Source: a virus | Taxonomy: Duplodnaviria > Heunggongvirae > Uroviricota > Caudoviricetes | Direction: 5' to 3' (one strand) | Length of the DNA stretch: 45,417 nucleotides | IMG/VR virus record: IMGVR_UViG_2706794697_000014 | Shown: positions 9,837 to 41,580 of the stretch, piece by piece | Numbering within the stretch: position 1 is the stretch's first letter | Layout: every line of letters starts with the position of its first letter | Made by a program: the position numbers and the translations under genes | Notes under the pieces: model-generated | What the model was told of the DNA's origin: nothing | The model's database searches: none | What the model saw: only the letters and a program-made list of their open reading frames with translations

Positions 9837-12800
9837 TCAACGAATACTGATGCCGGAAGCGGCTTTTTTGGTCACAATCACCGTACAGTCGGTGATATTG
9901 CCTGCCCCCTGATTGCCTTTCTGGAAAATCTTAAACTCCAGAGTGACGCTTCCCCTGCCACTCGGCATATCAATAACTGCACTGTAACTACCGGGAATGG
10001 CCCCTTTAGTTTCTCTGGATGCGATTAATACGCCGTTTTTGCGAACTTCAAAACCATAACCCGTGTATCGCGTGCCTCCTGGGTTATTTCCGCTCCCCGG
10101 ATCGTCATACGCTATACCGTTAAAAATAATGGGCGGAATAATAATCTGGCGGTCAAAGTTATGATCATCGCTGATGGTGACTGTAACCGTACCGTTTGGT
10201 GTTTCCGTGTTACCCCACGTACCGACTTTTTTCGGGAAGGCTTTTGATACAGCTTTAACGAAATCCCCTCTGACCTGGGTCGCCTCCAGCATGCCCTTAA
10301 TCGTACAGTTCTGGTTAATCGTGACATTGTTGAGCGTCCCTGAATTTGCATTCACATTACCGCTGATATCCGCATTTTTAGCGGTCAGCTTTCCGTCTGG
10401 TGTCAGGGAAAATGCCGGCGGATTTCCACCGCTGGTAATGGTGGGAGCCGTCAGGCGTTTCAGGAACACGTCATTCATGAATATCTGGTTGCCCTGCGCC
10501 ACAAACATCGGCGTTTCATTCCCGTTTGCCGGGTCAATAAACGCGATACGGTTAGCGGCAACCAGAAACTGGCTCAGTTTGCCTTCCTCCGTGTCCTCCA
10601 TGCTGAGGCCAATACCCGCGACATAATGTTTGCCGTCTTTGGTCTGCTCAATTTTGACGCCCCACATGGCATTCCACTTATCGTTGGCGTCCTTCCACTC
10701 TTTCGAAAACTCCTCCAGTCTGCTGGCGTTATCCTCCGTCAGGTCGACTTTTTCCAGCAGCTCCTGGCCGAGATGGGATTCGGTTATCTGGCCTTTGAAA
10801 AAATCCAGGTAACCTTCCGCATCATCGCTCGCCCGACCGACAGCCTCCACGAATGCTGATTTGCCGACGGTGTTCACACTGCGGATATAAAAGTAATAAT
10901 CATGGCCCGGCTTAATATTGATACTGGCGGCTATCCAGTACAGCCCCGTGCCAAGGTAGCGGGCTGTGGTTTCAACCTGCCTGATATCCGCAATCCGTTT
11001 TTCCGAGAACCAGAACTCAAACTGTACCGTCGGGTCATAAACCGCAAGATGCGGCGTGGCGGTTATCTGAAAATAGCCCGGCGTCAGCTCAATCCGCGAC
11101 GGCGCTGCCGGTGCGGCAATCCGGAACGATACCGACGCCGGATCGCCCTGCTGCCCCCACGCATTTACTGCCCGGACTGTCAGCCTGTAGTTCCCCAGAG
11201 CCAGTTGTGTGAAGCGGTAAGTGGTTTCCGTCGTCCGGGCCGTGCTGACCAGCCGCTCACGGCCGTCATCCGCTGCCACGGTCAGGCGAAGCAGGAAGCT
11301 CACGCCCTTCACCACCTTCGGCGTGTCCCAGCGGGCCAGCACCTGGTATTCCCCGCTGTCTGCGGTGACTTCTGCGGTCAGGTGCTGCACCGCTGGCGGC
11401 GTGACACCATTTACCGTGCCGCTCTGGTCGCCGTCAAAGTGCGCCCCGTTATCCACGATGGCCTCTTTTTCCGGTACATGCTGCACGGCAGTGATGGCAT
11501 ACGTGCCGTCGTCGTTCTCACGGATACTCACGCAGCGGAACAGGCGCTGGCGCAGCGTCGGCAGCTTCAGCCCCCATACGCTGTATTCAGCAACGCCGTC
11601 AGGAACACGGCTCACTTTCACCTTCACGCCGTCGGTGACGGACTGAACCTCCACGCTGACCGGACTCCCCTGCCCGTCAACCAGGCTTATCAGCGTGGTG
11701 CCGGAAGATGGCAGCGTGATTTCACGGTCGAGCGTCAGCGTCCGGGTCTGGCTGTTTACCGCCAGCACGCGCCCGCCGGTGCGGATACCGGCATAGTCAT
11801 CATCGCAGATTTCAATGACATCGCCCGGTACATGACGAAGCCCTTCAGCACCCACGCTGAAGTCCACGGTCTGCGTTTCCAGCAGTTCTGTTTTAATCAG
11901 CCACAGCCCGGCGCGGTGTGCCTGCCCCCGGCTGGTACAGCCAAAAGCATCCATCTTCGTGACGTTACGACCGTAACGGGCAATGGCCTGCGTGTCCTCC
12001 ACAAGCTCTGTCGCCGTCTCCCAGCCGTTATTCGGGTCAATCCAGTTCACCTCAACGGCATTATGGCGGTCCTTCAGGGCGCTGAANNNNNNNNNNNNNN
12101 NNNNNNNNNNNNNNNNNNNNNNNNNNNNNNNNNNNNNNNNNNNNNNNNNNNNNNNNNNNNNNNNNNNNNNNNNNNNNNNNNNNNNNNNNNNNNNNNNNNN
12201 NNNNNNNNNNNNNNNNNNNNNNNNNNNNNNNNNNNNNNNNNNNNNNNNNNNNNNNNNNNNNNNNNNNNNNNNNNNNNNNNNNNNNNNNNNNNNNNNNNNN
12301 NNNNNNNNNNNNNNNNNNNNNNNNNNNCGGCATCACCACATTACTGCGGTTATAGGTCCACACCTTATCCGACGGTCGGTCCTGCACGAACGTCAGCGTC
12401 TGCCCGTTCCATACCGGCATACAGCGCATCGCCGAGCAGAAATCACTGAGCACATCCCACGCCTTGCGCTGTGTGGTCAGGTACGCATTACAGGTGATGC
12501 GCGGCTCCGTGCCGCCAAAACCGTCCGGCACCGACTGATCGCAATGCTGGCCGATGACATACAGCGCCCATTTGTCCACATCCGCCGCACCAAGACGTTT
12601 CCCCATGCCGTAGCGCGGATGGGTCAGCATATCCCACAGACACCAGGCCATGTTGTTGCTGTATGCTGGCTTAAACGTTCCGTCCCAGATACCGCTGTAT
12701 TGCCGCGTCTGCGGGTTATAGCTCGACGGCACCTGCAGAATGCGCCCGCGCAGATGATAATTACGGCTCACCTGCTGGCTGCCGAACTGCTCCGAATCCA

Positions 12801-14818: not shown

Positions 14819-15299
14819 TTACTGCGAAAGTTTGTTAATGGAAAGGAAGCCGCCAAAGTTGCCGACGTTATTGCGAAACTTACAGCCGCTCAGGCATTTG
14901 CTGCATTTATCCTTCGTGATATCGGACGTCGGCTGATCATATTCATCCGCGACCGCCGGACCGTGATAACCGCACTCATCGCCGCGATAGGTCCAGGTGC
15001 AGGTGTTGGCCAGCATGATACGTCCCGGAAAAACGGCACCGTCCGTTTCCGTCGGCGTGGACAGTACAANNNNNNNNNNNNNNNNNNNNNNNNNNNNNNN
15101 NNNNNNNNNNNNNNNNNNNNNNNNNNNNNNNNNNCTGTCGCCCCTGCCAGGTGACCGGCTCACCTTTTTCGTTCTGCTCATTACAGAAAAAATAACGTTC
15201 TCCACCGACCTCTGTCAGATCGATTTCCCAGAGCACCACCTGGGCTGACTGAGTGAGGCGTGTCGTCTCATGATGTGTTTCCTGTGGAATATCCTGCAT
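14819..15299 (-). CDS. L: minor tail protein L (interrupted by N-run)
   Basis: N-terminal piece MQDIPQETHHETTRLTQSAQVVLWEIDLTEVGGERYFFCNEQNEKGEPVTWQGRQ and C-terminal piece ...CKFRNNVGNFGGFLSINKLSQ match lambda L; N-run 15070-15134 breaks the frame. Confidence 0.8.
15070..15134. other. assembly gap (65 N)
   Basis: run of n within L. Confidence 1.
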
Positions 15300-30127: not shown

Positions 30128-30583
30128 NNNNNNNNNNNNNNNNNNNNNNNNNNNNNNNNNNNNNNNNNNNNNNNNNNNNNNNNNNNNNNNNNNNNNNNNN
30201 NNNNNNNNNNNNNNNNNNNNNNNNNNNNNNNNNNNNNNNNNNNNNNNNNNNNNNNNNNNNNNNNNNNNNNNNNNNNNNNNNNNNNNNNNNNNNNNNNNNN
30301 NNNNNNNNNNNNNNNNNNNNNNNNNNNNNNNNNNNNNNNNNNNNNNNNNNNNNNNNNNNNNNNNNNNNNNNNNNNNNNNNNNNNNNNNNNNNNNNNNNNN
30401 NNNNNNNNNNNNNNNNNNNNNNNNNNNNNNNNNNNNNNNNNNNNNNNNNNNNNNNNNNNNNNNNNNNNNNNNNNNNNNNNNNNNNNNNNNNNNNNNNNNN
30501 NNNNNNNNNNNNNNNNNNNNNNNNNNNNNNNNNNNNNNNNNNNNNNNNNNNNNNNNNNNNNNNNNNNNNNNNNNNNNNNNNNN
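30128..30583. other. assembly gap (456 N)
   Basis: run of n between endolysin and holin 5' end. Confidence 1.
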
Positions 30584-30655
30584 AAACCAGTACCCGGCAC
30601 TACCTGCTGAGGTGCCATAGGCGACACCCGTTGTTAACTTATCCATGGATTTCAT
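30584..30655 (-). CDS. S: pinholin (S21-like) N-terminal fragment, truncated by N-run
   Basis: [24 protein letters not shown] matches the N-terminus of phage 21-type pinholin as recalled; remainder lies in the gap. Confidence 0.6.
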
Positions 30656-30722
30656 AACCCCACCTCGCAGATGCGGGTGCTGTGTAATGGAAATAAAAAG
30701 GCCACCTGACGTGGCCACCAGA

Positions 30723-31775
30723 TTATTTCCCCACCAGCTCGTTTATCTCTTTCACTGTCTGATTAAACCGCTCTGACTCAAGCTCAACACCTAAGGCCCG
30801 ACGCCCCAGCGCCATTGCTGCTTTTATTGTGGAACCGGATCCCATAAAAAAATCAGCAACCAGATCACCTGGTCGACTACTGGCATTGATTATTTGCCTG
30901 AGCATATCCGCCGGTTTCTCACACGGATGTTTCCCCGGGTAGAACTGAACGGGTTTATGCATCCAGACATCGGTATAAGGCACGGAGACTGATACGGAGA
31001 AATAGCGCCGGAGAGATTTAAACTCATCCAGCAATTCAGAATATTTACGATTCAGTGAATCATAAGATGCCACCAGCTGGTGGTGTGGTTGTTCCAGTTG
31101 TTGTTCCTGAAACTTCTCTGCCGCTATACGGGAAAACAGTGCCTGTAACTTCCGATAGTCAGCCTCATTCGGCAACTGCCACTGACTGGCACCAAACCAG
31201 TGGGAAACCATATTTTTCTTACCTGTGGCTTCGGCAATTTGTTTTGCCGTTATACCCAGTTCGGCACGAGCATCCCTGAAATACGATATCAGCGGTGCCA
31301 TTATGTGCTGTTTGAGTTCCCTTTCTTTTGCCGCATAGCCGTCACTTTTGCCGCGATATGGCCCCTGGTAATGTTCAGCAAACAGAACGCGCTCTGTGGC
31401 AGGAAAATATGCGCGCAGACTTTCTTTATTACACCCATTCCAACGTCCGGACGGCTTCGCCCAGATGATATGGTTAAGCACGTTGAAACGTTCACGCATC
31501 ATGATCTCAATATCAGATGCCAGGCGATGCCCACAGAACAGGTAAAGGCTTCCGGCAGGTTTCAACACCCGCCAGAACTGGGCCAGACAGTGGTCCAGCC
31601 ACTTAAGGTAATCTTCGTCCCCTTTCCACTGATTGTCCCAACCGTTGGGTTTCACCTTGAAGTAAGGCGGATCGGTAACAATCAGGTCAATGGAATCATC
31701 AGGCAGGGACTGAATAAAATGCAGGCAATCAGCGTTGATTAAATCAACACTGTTTATTTTTACAGTATTTTTCAT
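30723..31775 (-). CDS. orphan DNA N6-adenine/N4-cytosine methyltransferase (beta-class)
   Basis: 350-aa ORF with DPPY (LIVTDPPYF) near N-terminus and AdoMet motif DFFMGSGST near C-terminus. Confidence 0.8.
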
Positions 31776-31925
31776 GGATCAGTAAGCGTAACTCTGGTAG
31801 GCTCACTCTGCTTTTGCGCTAAAGCAGTGGGCCGTGGTTCGCTTGTGACCAGTAAGCATGAGCGAATGGCTGGCAGGTGCTACCAACACCCACCAGCCGC
31901 CCATTTTCACAGCAGGAAACCGCCA

Positions 31926-32153
31926 TTACTGGCAGCGTCTGAATTTATTCCCGTACCCGCCGTTATCCTTCGCCAGACCCGCCAGAACTAACTGAGTCAG
32001 TATTAACTGGCACCGGGCTTCGCTTACTCCGGTAGTTCTCGTCATCATGCGTGGCGTTACCCACTTGTCAGCAGGTAAGAAATGAAGGACTGCGGCGGCG
32101 GTTTCTGTCATATCTTGCTGTTTTAGCATGTCTTTTTCCCTTCTGGTTAACAT
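31926..32153 (-). CDS. hypothetical small protein
   Basis: 75-aa ORF only; no recognisable motif. Confidence 0.3.
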   Translation of the reverse strand: MLTRREKDMLKQQDMTETAAAVLHFLPADKWVTPRMMTRTTGVSEARCQLILTQLVLAGLAKDNGGYGNKFRRCQ

Positions 32154-32250
32154 GACATACCAATAACTCTTGTCTAAAAAGCCAGCAAGATAAAAAGTCA
32201 GTATTCACGACCACCAGCGTGTTTACTGTACTGCACCAAGTTTACGGGTA

Positions 32251-32277
32251 CAAAAAACCCGCTCAGTGGCGGGTTGC
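32251..32277 (-). terminator. intrinsic terminator downstream of lipoprotein moron (copy of tR'-like hairpin)
   Basis: minus strand reads AACCCGC-CACTGA-GCGGGTT then T6; 27/28 identical to the hairpin at 32927-32955. Confidence 0.45.
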
Positions 32278-32352
32278 TATCACAGCTATATATTTACTTA
32301 TTATGCCGTTACTAACATTTATCTTCGACATATAATCGAAAACAAGGTTTGC

Positions 32353-32778
32353 TTAAAACTCTGCTTTCATTTTATCCGGGAATTTTTTATTTGCAGCATA
32401 ATAACTACCAAGTACATAAGCGTTCATTTGCTGCTCTACATCAACCCGACATGCCGCACTAGAACAAGCTCCACTGATAAGCCCAAAAGAACTCCCTTTA
32501 GCAGAGAGATCAGCTTTGATTTCCTCTACAGTGTTTTTCCCCATAGCAACTACACACCCTGTCACAATATATCTAGCTTTCACATCATCCATGCTAAGGA
32601 TAGTAGTTTTCGCAATTTTGCTGTATCCATCATTTTTATAAACATCCATGGCAAACGCACGGCAATCTGTATAATACGGACTTGCTTTAACTTGCGAATA
32701 CTCAGGTAATTTCATACCTGCACAACCAACTAAACAAAAACCTATCGCTGCTATTAATACCTTTTTCATTACAGTCAT
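32353..32778 (-). CDS. lipoprotein (moron)
   Basis: 141-aa ORF with signal peptide and lipobox MKKVLIAAIGFCLVGCAG; AT-rich; flanked by near-identical terminator hairpins. Confidence 0.65.
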   Translation of the reverse strand: MTVMKKVLIAAIGFCLVGCAGMKLPEYSQVKASPYYTDCRAFAMDVYKNDGYSKIAKTTILSMDDVKARYIVTGCVVAMGKNTVEEIKADLSAKGSSFGLISGACSSAACRVDVEQQMNAYVLGSYYAANKKFPDKMKAEF

Positions 32779-32926
32779 AACCTAGAAGCATCATTGAAAC
32801 TAATTTATTAAATAACCATCGAGTTTCTGGAATACAGACGTTAACCATCTCTCCAAAATCTAAAAGATAATAAGAAAAAATGTTTAACGCACCAATCCAT
32901 TTCATAGTTTCATGAGACATCAGGCA

Positions 32927-32955
32927 CAAAAAACCCGCTCAGCGGCGGGTTTTTG
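32927..32955 (-). terminator. tR'-like intrinsic terminator about 100 nt downstream of Q
   Basis: minus strand reads AACCCGC-CGCTGA-GCGGGTT then T6. Confidence 0.5.
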
Positions 32956-33057
32956 ACATTTACCAACGGTAGACATACAAGGCCCATCGTTGAGAAAATC
33001 TTATCCATATTTTTTGAAAAATGCAAGTATCACGTCGACATCTTCGGCGAAAATTAT

Positions 33058-33810
33058 CTATCTTGTCACTTTTCTCAATTGCGATTCAGCATACGCTTCT
33101 TCCTGCCAGCACTTTGTAACCAGTTTATTAATAACGTCTGCATATCCTTTGTACCACTGATAATCCGTCAGGTCCGGTACCAGTTTCTGGACATGATGCC
33201 GCGCCAGTGTGGTTGGTAAACGGCTAAACCGGTTGCCATTGCAACGCCCACAAATCTTATAAACAGGCACACCATGAAGCCGGGTTCTTTTTTCATCCAG
33301 GACAATACCTTTACCCTTACACCCTCTGCACGCTGTGCTGACTTCTCCCTTACCATGGCAATGCTGACATAGTTCCTTCACCCACTCTTCCTTGATAACA
33401 GATTCCCCGCTTCTGGAGTGTTTCACCACTTCGCGCAATACATTATGAAATCCAGTACCAGCACAATGCTCACAGCGAGCCTTACTTGCCGCAGACCTGG
33501 AATAATCAGCAAAGGCAAAATTCACAAGGTAAGGGATGATCTGTAACCGGGTTTCTTCACTCAATTTGTTCAATGTCGGGTTATCCAGTGCCATCGCGTA
33601 ATTGAGCAGACCTTCAATCGCAAATTGAGGATCCTGAACACCAACTTTTGCCAGGAATAAGGCAAACCCAAGCGGTGCTTTCGACTGCACCATCCCCTGC
33701 GCAGCCATCACATCCGTAATCGTTAAACCACCTGAGCCTGTCGCCGGTGCGTCATCGCTCAATTTTGGAGATTTTGGGGAGTAATATTTTGGTAAGGCTT
33801 CAAGGTTCAT
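33058..33810 (-). CDS. late-gene antitermination protein Q-like
   Basis: Cys/His zinc-binding motifs CEHCAGTG...CQHCHGKG...CRGCKGKG, position immediately upstream of tR' and lysis/structural genes. Confidence 0.6.
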   Translation of the reverse strand: MNLEALPKYYSPKSPKLSDDAPATGSGGLTITDVMAAQGMVQSKAPLGFALFLAKVGVQDPQFAIEGLLNYAMALDNPTLNKLSEETRLQIIPYLVNFAFADYSRSAASKARCEHCAGTGFHNVLREVVKHSRSGESVIKEEWVKELCQHCHGKGEVSTACRGCKGKGIVLDEKRTRLHGVPVYKICGRCNGNRFSRLPTTLARHHVQKLVPDLTDYQWYKGYADVINKLVTKCWQEEAYAESQLRKVTR

Positions 33811-33823
33811 GCTCGTTCTCCAC

Positions 33824-34819
33824 TTACGCCAATACGCCAATTGCCAGCGCACGATCGATAAAACGAAATATCAGCTCCAGCTGGGAGCCATACTTCTCTT
33901 CAAATGCCACGGTATCCGCATGCAGCTCGTCGTGATGCTTTCTGCACAAAGGCAACACAAAGAGGTCATGCGCTTTTGTACCCATTCCACCCTGACCGTG
34001 GCCTATCAGGTGGTGGGGATCATCAGCAGGCTTTCCACAACATGCACACGGCTGTGTCTTAACCCAGCGCGTGTACTTTTCATTAACCCAGCGGCGGCGT
34101 TTTGGGCGTAACATAAAAGACTCCGGCGACTCCGGATCCACTTTCAGCGCCAGCACCTTTTTTGCCTTATCCTGGATGATGCTGGTGGCAGGAACCGAAG
34201 GCACAAGGTCACTTTCCCGGGTGACAGACGGCACAACAGGCTTTGGTAATCTCAGTGCCTTACGGGCTGCACTTTCCGGTAAGGCATCCGCCAGGTCATT
34301 ACGAATCAGCCACCAGCACAGTTCCGGCATTGTCACAACGTGACTATCATCAAAACCGAGATCCCGACGCACAACAGACAACACCCAGCGGGCACAGTTA
34401 TCCGTTGCCATTGATTCCAGCCGTTCCGTGAACTGATCGCGCAGCTGGTTATCGCAGTGCCAGCACAGACGGATTGCGCCCGGAGCGTGTCGCATTGTGG
34501 TCATGTTCTCGCTGTGCCAGTCGGAATGAGGCCACTGGCAGCCTTTTTCACGAAGTAACCAGCTTTCAAGACATTCCACGCCACCAGCACGACGGATCAC
34601 TGCCTCATTGCGGAACACGGCCCGAACGGCAGGATCATCCGCCAGCGGTTGTGATGCCGCCGGAACGGCACCACTGGCGAAAGATGAATAACGTTCCGGC
34701 TCAGGCTCCAGCAGAACACGCCCCTGCATAAACAGGGGCATCAGCTCTGAACCTGGCCTGAACAATACGATCCCCATACGCGGGGCAATTTCAGGGGTCA
34801 GTAGTGCTCTCACGGTCAC
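33824..34819 (-). CDS. DUF968-like prophage protein
   Basis: 331-aa ORF; C-terminal Cys/His cluster CACCGKPADDPHHLIGHGQGGMGTKAHD...CRKHHDELH recalled from DUF968-type E. coli prophage proteins. Confidence 0.5.
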   Translation of the reverse strand: MTVRALLTPEIAPRMGIVLFRPGSELMPLFMQGRVLLEPEPERYSSFASGAVPAASQPLADDPAVRAVFRNEAVIRRAGGVECLESWLLREKGCQWPHSDWHSENMTTMRHAPGAIRLCWHCDNQLRDQFTERLESMATDNCARWVLSVVRRDLGFDDSHVVTMPELCWWLIRNDLADALPESAARKALRLPKPVVPSVTRESDLVPSVPATSIIQDKAKKVLALKVDPESPESFMLRPKRRRWVNEKYTRWVKTQPCACCGKPADDPHHLIGHGQGGMGTKAHDLFVLPLCRKHHDELHADTVAFEEKYGSQLELIFRFIDRALAIGVLA

Positions 34820-41005: not shown

Positions 41006-41445
41006 TGTATCTAAAAGAAACACAGCACAGGCAAGATTAAACAAAATTTGGTTGTAACACGGCGTATGGCACATGCGTCGTTAGCGGTCTGGGGACGTTA
41101 AAGGGGACAATCCACTCCTTGCTCGGGCAAACAAACCAGGTAGCCGGAATGTGCAAGTCAATGATGATGCTGATAAGACGCCTAACCAGCGTGGCGATTC
41201 GGTTTGACGCCTGGGAAGAGACCAGGGTGCAACGATGAGGACATTTATGGAACCGCGACAAAGTGTGGTGCCGTAACTGGCTAAGTGCTCTCAGCGTTGT
41301 GGTGAATGCGCAGGCTGATGCGCGAAAGACATTGCAGCTAATGCGGAAAAGAGCTGTTCGGCGGGGCAATTAAACGCCCGTGAGAGTCTGAAATAACCGC
41401 AAGCCGGAGATCAGCACCGGTCACCACAACAGCCACTGCTTTGGC

Positions 41446-41580
41446 GGTACCAGTTTGTACACTTGCTTCCGGCTGGTACCGCTCTTTTTACAAAACAGAG
41501 AAGAGCATCACCGGACGACGGGCTCATAACCAAATCCATCCGGGCGGCTGCCACCGCAGGTGTTCTTCTCTGTTTTGTGG
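41446..41580 (+). promoter_or_regulatory. two large inverted repeats in the early-left leader
   Basis: GCGGTACCAG/CTGGTACCGC 10-bp perfect inverted repeat (41446-41484) and ACAAAACAGAGAAGA...TCTTCTCTGTTTTGT 15-bp perfect inverted repeat (about 41490-41578). Confidence 0.4.

Follow-up and report, generated by a model that had tools for sequence, protein, structure and literature searches.

A low-GC lipoprotein gene between twin terminator hairpins downstream of Q in a lambda-like Escherichia coli prophage

Morons are defined as extra DNA relative to related phages, with a deviating GC content, a promoter and terminator of their own, and expression from the prophage (PMC3594210). The locus described here lies in a window of 45,417 nucleotides, the whole stretch of viral DNA that was analysed, and three of these features were found: presence or absence among collinear phages, base composition, and an own terminator. 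As in the HK97/HK022-type morons, a single accessory gene inside a phage operon forms an extra segment with deviating GC and its own terminator; unlike in those morons, the promoter is a candidate only, the terminator is a near-copy of tR', and the two copies mediate precise gain and loss of the segment. With the pR'-6S RNA-tR' unit of lambda, the locus shares the promoter architecture and a constitutive short transcript ended at tR', the latter predicted here from sequence. Stx phages likewise carry cargo, stx or tRNA genes, between tR' and the lysis genes. Unlike in lambda and the Stx phages, the terminator is unrelated to lambda tR' and the cargo has a second terminator behind it.

Bor of lambda, Cor of phi80, N15, and HK022, and Llp of T5 are outer-membrane lipoproteins, likewise small, accessory, and prophage-encoded, and the product studied here plausibly acts, as they do, at the lysogen envelope; unlike these, it is larger (123-aa mature protein), is predicted to be an all-helical bundle, and has four conserved cysteines. 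Lambdoid phages, whose evolution is modular and mosaic, carry short boundary or linker sequences that are conserved where modules meet. Here, too, a short shared sequence marks the recombination joints of unrelated modules, but unlike the generic boundary sequences this joint is a specific terminator hairpin, identical over 24 nt. We consider it likely that the locus is a moron cassette occupying the interval from Q to the lysis genes in a lambda-like prophage, and that the right hairpin copy (R) is tR', the left copy (L) is a barrier, and the copies together are a substrate for exchange. The locus itself is an ordinary moron of an uncharacterised lipoprotein family, and its most interesting remainder is the hairpin as a shared recombination joint.

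The window represents a lambda-like E. coli prophage, and the genes around the lipoprotein cassette are all on the minus strand (Table 1). The chromosome of E. coli strain A14 matches positions 31900-33100 with 100% identity. On the minus strand, read 5' to 3', the gene for a DUF968 protein is followed by Q, a spacer of approximately 105 nt, copy R, an AT-rich leader of 144 nt, the 141-aa ORF, a 77-nt spacer, copy L, orf75, the methylase gene, a third terminator-like hairpin, and the holin gene. The Q genes of mEp460, Ayreon, and SfV bear the annotation antitermination protein Q, and orf75 adjoins the single hairpin of phages with an empty site. The SfV and Ayreon annotations place a terminator at the site matching the third hairpin; since this hairpin lies just upstream of holin, three terminators stand between pR' and the lysis genes. 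Masked sequence is present in the window as three N runs (12087-12327, 15070-15134, and 30128-30583), the last of which covers the 3' part of holin and whatever separates holin from the endolysin gene.

Table 1. Positions of the features of the cassette and its surroundings in the window.
Feature	Position	Strand	Details
Q, late antiterminator, lambda-Q family	33058..33810	-	250 aa from ATG; Pfam PF03589 (Antiterm), E 5e-54
pR'	32983..33026	-	-35 TTGCAT (33026-33021), 17-nt spacer, -10 TAAGAT (33003-32998), AACGATGGG (32991-32983)
Right repeat copy (R), putative tR'	32923..32951	-	Hairpin AACCCGCCGCTGAGCGGG + T6 (32951-32928), GTGCC
Candidate moron promoter	32867..32895	-	-35 TTGGTG (32895-32890), 17 nt, -10 TATTAT (32872-32867)
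Lipoprotein gene, 141 aa	32353..32778	-	Start probably ATG at 32769 (MKK...); lipobox LVGC, Cys19; mature protein 123 aa
Left repeat copy (L), putative second terminator	32247..32275	-	Hairpin AACCCGCCACTGAGCGGG + T6 (32275-32252), GTACC
orf75, small conserved late-region gene, 75 aa	31926..32153	-	PHROG 331, function-unknown family
N6/N4 DNA methyltransferase (methylase)	30723..31775	-	Pfam PF01555, E 2e-42
Third terminator-like hairpin, between methylase and holin	30700..30716	-	GGCCACGTCAGGTGGCC + T-run; from sequence

The twin hairpins reported in a first-pass annotation of this DNA were confirmed. A repeat search returned them as one 29-nt direct repeat, GG[T/C]ACAAAAAACCCGCTCAG[T/C]GGCGGGTT on the plus strand, with 27 of 29 positions identical and a start-to-start spacing of 676. 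In substance that annotation was right, its coordinates were shifted by approximately 4 nt, and in place of its 27/28 core we found a 25-nt core with 24/25 identities. The repeat contains a terminator hairpin of 24 nt, AACCCGCC[A/G]CTGAGCGGGTTTTTT on the minus strand, where both copies read AACCCGCC[A/G]CTGAGCGGG and then T6. In both copies, a stem of 7 bp, of which 5 are GC pairs, encloses a loop of 6 nt and is followed by U6, as expected of intrinsic terminators judged by sequence, and the folding energy of the hairpin was approximately -13 kcal/mol. When up to 3 mismatches were allowed, the 24-nt hairpin plus U-run occurred exactly 2 times in the 45-kb window and 0 times in 100 shuffles, by which a chance likeness of the two hairpins was rejected.

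A terminator consensus scan flagged the left copy and missed the right one, apparently because the A-run and T-run of copy R pair, extend the stem, and consume the T tail. On the plus strand, a T-run is present at the right copy only. Past the hairpin and the A-run, the copies match at just 4 of the next 5 bases (GGYAC, plus strand). Three markers tell the copies apart, namely G or A in the loop, T-run length, and the bases that come next (GTGCCT vs GTACC[T/C]): R copies are G/T6-7/GTGCCT or A/T7/GTGCCA, and L copies are A/T6/GTACC[T/C]. An Rfam scan of 30600-34000 at E ≤1 identified no known RNA family; the sub-threshold matches were to STnc130 and to the Trp and Leu leaders, with terminator hairpins behind them.

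When aligned at the end of lambda Q, the window sequence TTGCAT-17-TAAGAT-TTTCTC-AACGATGGG was collinear with TTGACT-17-TAAATT-TGACTC-AACGATGGG of lambda, a stretch known to be pR' with its promoter-proximal sigma-dependent pause element (AACGATGGG). Copy R is the first terminator 3' of pR', after Q, and the position of tR' is occupied by the right copy only. Its position assigns copy R as the putative tR', and the collinearity of pR' with lambda bears out the earlier proposal that the Q-proximal hairpin stands at the tR' position. The end of the copy R U-run near 32928 predicts a transcript of approximately 63 nt without antitermination, compared with the 194 nt of the lambda pR' leader RNA.

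The lipoprotein gene is the sole credible gene of the insert. Its GC content is 38.3% and that of the whole insert is 35.7%, with 28% at third codon positions; Q, orf75, and the methylase gene have 47-50% GC and 45-55% GC3. The hairpins thus bracket a low-GC ORF of 141 aa, in agreement with the first reading of the sequence. The dN/dS ratios against four homologues ranged from 0.075 to 0.22, indicating that the ORF is a real coding gene under purifying selection. At its N-terminus the protein has a lipoprotein signal peptide, MTVMKKVLIAAIGFCLVG-C, and MKKVLIAAIGFCLVG-C fits the lipobox pattern [LVI][ASTVI][GAS]C. G18 and C19 are invariant among 7 homologues, and the lipobox of the divergent homologue P0015 is LSGC; the lipobox LVGC with its invariant Gly and Cys therefore upheld the lipoprotein signal, for which a prediction had been proposed as a check. 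Four further cysteines (C39, C75, C105, and C110) are also invariant. In E. coli, Ala at position +2 directs lipoproteins to the outer membrane, and the Ala found at this position predicts the same destination for this product. AlphaFold modelled the mature part as a helical bundle with a pLDDT of 80.9, after a poor first model (pLDDT 61). The product is accordingly predicted to be a Cys-anchored lipoprotein whose chain, with its four conserved cysteines, folds as a compact bundle of helices.

The only PHROG match of the protein was to family 4748, which is of unknown function. No match was obtained against Pfam and NCBIfam at E ≤0.01 or against the PADLOC defence models at E ≤0.1; PDB sequences yielded nothing credible, and fold comparison gave no match. 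Membership in Bor/Iss, Cor, or Llp was ruled out by the lack of a Pfam, NCBIfam, or fold match and the hit to PHROG 4748 only. The suggestion in the first-pass annotation that the lipoprotein serves surface exclusion or host fitness gained no direct support, as neither a family nor a defence system nor a fold was matched. Our best guess is an envelope function that aids the lysogen, e.g., phage exclusion or envelope protection; an exclusion or envelope-fitness factor would, if true, make the lipoprotein worth knowing.

When 1.84 billion representative proteins were searched with a profile, the family comprised 8 clusters at 50% identity, and a search seeded with its most divergent member retrieved no new relatives. 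That member, the lipoprotein P0015 (29% identity; L242 5001-5426), is encoded on a contig of 36.5 kb, where its neighbours are genes for transposase, resolvase, and reverse transcriptase, once more a setting of mobile DNA. In the Salmonella prophage L009, Q belongs to another family (PF06530/DUF1133); approximately 45 nt past this Q lie the same hairpin AGCCCGCCACTGAGCGGGTTTTTTT, a homologous leader, a lipoprotein gene with 76% identity, and a diverged second hairpin AAAACCCGCATTGCGCGGGTTTTT. A diverged orf75 leader and a 3' methylase remnant come after the second hairpin. In this prophage, orf75 and about three-quarters of the methylase gene have been deleted, leaving the 3' remnant only (L009 6430-6810). 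The sequences trailing the two Salmonella hairpins are alike (GTATCCGAAAC after the second and GTACCTGAAAC after the first, GTAYCYGAAAC-like). Such likeness past the stem speaks for an old duplication whose copies would since have drifted apart, and the near-identity of the E. coli copies is plausibly kept through ongoing exchange.

Homologues with 62-66% identity were identified in two further settings: Rac-like prophages of Salmonella (L011-L013), where they adjoin VapBC in the early-left region, and phage-plasmids of approximately 110 kb, where they lie beside DNA polymerase III alpha. A plasmid search returned 204 records, 194 of them from Klebsiella. In these settings, the lipoprotein gene has other terminators. 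The foreign composition and the other prophage positions of the gene fit a moron, and its distribution marks the cassette as old and mobile. In Klebsiella and Buttiauxella phage-plasmids, a second lipoprotein gene of 99 aa is located approximately 10 nt 3' of the homologue (L010 3431-3730; L243 5446-5745), and the two may possibly form a two-gene unit. A Lit-like Peptidase_U49 gene is present nearby in the Buttiauxella phage-plasmid.

The 1.2-kb region 31900-33100 was found with 97.8% identity in mEp460, Ayreon, and 15 Stx2c-converting phages, and with 96.5-96.6% identity in phiSTEC1575-Stx2k and PhiR47_1. At least 80% of it is present in 169 of 5,426 complete E. coli genomes. In vB_EcoM-720R4 and Shigella phage SfV, both flanks match, the middle is absent, and a single hairpin lies between pR' and orf75. 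Two viral contigs are also empty and are nearly isogenic with the window: the upstream flank of L032 is identical at 400/400 positions and its downstream flank at 99.5%, and the flanks of L043 are 99.8% (upstream) and 99.5% (downstream) identical. The comparison with relatives lacking the insert, which had been proposed as a check, therefore found four empty sites at the collinear position (720R4, SfV, L032, and L043). The L032 hairpin is a chimera, G loop...GTGCC/CGTAAAC, whose junction follows the R copy through all but the final two bases of the repeat and then takes the L-copy continuation of the window. L043 has an all-L-type hairpin. Empty sites exist in several marker forms, and both variants of the pR' leader were found occupied as well as empty.

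All of the two-hairpin loci listed in the viral-contig scan (8/8) had a spacing of 676-677 and hence carry the insert. No two-hairpin locus without an insert was found in the phage or E. coli searches, an arrangement that would have spoken against the first-pass reading. The near-isogenic empty contigs and the exact chimera of the two copies indicate that recombination inside the repeat adds or removes a unit of 676 bp. Comparison of the alleles showed this unit, one hairpin plus the cassette, to be precisely exchanged by homologous recombination in the 24-29-nt repeat. Because the products are symmetrical, the near-isogenic pairs fit loss, by deletion between direct repeats, and gain, by unequal or Campbell-type exchange, alike. 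In the toxin phage phiSTEC1575-Stx2k (L004 1-2505), the terminator-lipoprotein-terminator cassette is located between Q and the tRNA-stx2 block, so that toxin transcription from pR' must pass two copies of the terminator. The region is shared by the 15 unannotated Stx2c phage records, and the Q-to-stx placement was seen in the Stx2k phage only.

The hairpin is not confined to this site. Its exact 24-mer was found in more than 120 viral contigs and in at least 55 unrelated flank contexts (IMG/VR loci L014-L133, e.g., L040, L017, L084, and L023), in many cases directly 5' of a ribosome-binding site and start codon. Among sampled hairpins of the form AACCCGC-N6-GCGGGTTTTTT, approximately 11% had the loop of the 24-mer and every other loop accounted for ≤5%, an excess that is explained in part by over-sampling of E. 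coli prophages. The pR' leaders preceding the hairpin comprise two alleles of the leader in the window, a lambda-like one (TAAATTTGAC...AACGATGGGCATTGTATGTTCA), and TAGGCTCGGGAC, found in Salmonella with the other Q family. Hundreds of E. coli genomes share sequence with the window only as far as 32275, exactly the end of copy L.

PhiR40_1, cdtI, and mEp460_4F5 carry a short unrelated Q followed by other cargo genes oriented against the late operon (L006 2301-2747, L007 2309-3697, and L008 2295-3221, respectively). This cargo adjoins a degenerate hairpin (AAACCGC... vs AACCCGC...), and then the same orf75-methylase module follows; 17 viral contigs with an upstream flank of this type contain the exact 24-mer. 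The interval from Q to the hairpin is a cargo hotspot. Two unrelated upstream flanks, the pR' leader and the other cargo, and the two downstream alleles GTACCTGTAAAC and ATGCCTGAAAAAC were found in all four combinations (L021, L063, L019, and L089). Since nothing but the hairpin lies between the flank and allele markers, the crossovers fall within it. The pattern marks the hairpin, on these alignments, as a recurrent mosaic breakpoint joining different Q modules to different downstream modules. As a tentative and rather doubtful extension, the 24-nt hairpin may be a conserved homology joint, a universal adaptor across many enterobacterial phages, at which recombinases swap Q, cargo, and late modules and two-copy cassettes can be excised and inserted. 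If the hairpin is indeed a preferred recombination joint, mosaicism where Q meets the late genes would have a concrete basis in sequence.

Because the hairpin is so widespread, the identity of the two copies is no proof of a duplication at insertion, and the simple reading that identical copies prove it is weakened. Of the first-pass claim that the moron was inserted by recombination at the terminator and duplicated it, recombination at the terminator agrees with the presence/absence polymorphism, and duplication by the insertion event does not follow from a portable hairpin found in so many flank contexts. The second copy could have been made at insertion or could have been brought in by the cassette. 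The latter is part of an explanation that we regard as unlikely, though it accounts for several observations: the cassette would have brought its own common terminator and entered by illegitimate insertion approximately 13 nt past tR' in an SfV-type site, with no duplication of the target, and the 720R4-type sites would be secondary deletions. The SfV-type empty allele indeed has the R-copy hairpin type (G loop, T7) and the next ~12 nt (GTGCCT(T)GATGT) before the orf75 leader, the hairpin is portable and common, and elsewhere the lipoprotein gene has a different terminator of its own. Against it, the L-type hairpin with the GTACCTGTAAAC-orf75 junction also occurs without the cassette, behind other Q genes or cargo (17 contigs), so that the L copy looks native to the orf75 module; furthermore, the Salmonella hairpins share their trailing sequence past the stem, as an old duplication would leave it.

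How the cassette is transcribed was considered next. The leader contains a candidate promoter (Table 1) whose counterpart in the Salmonella cassette is TTGGTA, 18 nt, TATCAT, and the leaders are approximately 60% identical by a by-eye estimate. The candidate -35 matches the consensus at just 3/6 positions, and a consensus scan flagged no promoter on the gene's strand in the leader. The left hairpin with its U6 lies 77 nt past the stop codon of the lipoprotein gene and, judged by sequence, would be the cassette's own terminator. In the proposed mechanism, copy R would halt the short pR' transcript unless Q has modified the polymerase. In the lysogen, the lipoprotein gene would most likely be transcribed from a weak sigma-70 promoter of its own, situated in the leader; after induction, Q-modified polymerase would cross R, the cassette, and L, and would transcribe the lipoprotein gene on its way. 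Copy L would restore a barrier otherwise breached by the cassette, keeping cassette-born transcripts and leakage through R from orf75, the methylase gene, and the lysis genes.

It is improbable, in our assessment, that the insert is instead a promoterless extra late gene, made only under Q antitermination and acting in lytic growth, e.g., on the envelope around lysis. Such a gene would suit its location inside the late operon, just 5' of the lysis genes, in both E. coli and Salmonella phages, and the absence of a leader promoter on the gene's strand in the consensus scan. However, homologues occur outside late operons, in the Rac-like early-left region and among phage-plasmid replication genes, a plain late gene would hardly call for a terminator directly 3' of it, and both hexamers (-35 and -10) and their 17/18-nt spacing are kept in a leader with an estimated identity of only ~60%.

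That the repeat is a transposase target-site duplication or a site-specific, integron-like product is highly improbable: direct repeats do surround an insert of foreign composition, but neither a transposase nor an integrase gene lies in the insert, its ends lack terminal inverted repeats, the crossover points differ between empty sites, and 24-29 nt far exceeds usual target duplications. The transposon reading was rejected for want of a transposase and of terminal inverted repeats, and the varying crossover points among the empty sites indicate that the exchange is homologous and not site-specific.

The locus provides a clean natural case of a moron housed within a late operon that is lethal if leaky. 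A second copy of the operon's own terminator follows the cassette, and the twins make it precisely removable and transferable. The uncharacterised lipoprotein family is confined to mobile elements, namely E. coli prophages, Stx2c and Stx2k phages, and approximately 200 phage-plasmids, mostly of Klebsiella.

A small RNA was also located in the window. sRNA-17 is an ArcA-modulated prophage sRNA of E. coli K1 RS218 (PMC7719688). A place within the cassette region was rejected for it, as it maps to 41375-41482, well outside. Its primers and Northern probe match exactly there, on the minus strand, indicating that this prophage carries the sRNA-17 locus, which probably spans approximately 41300-41490.
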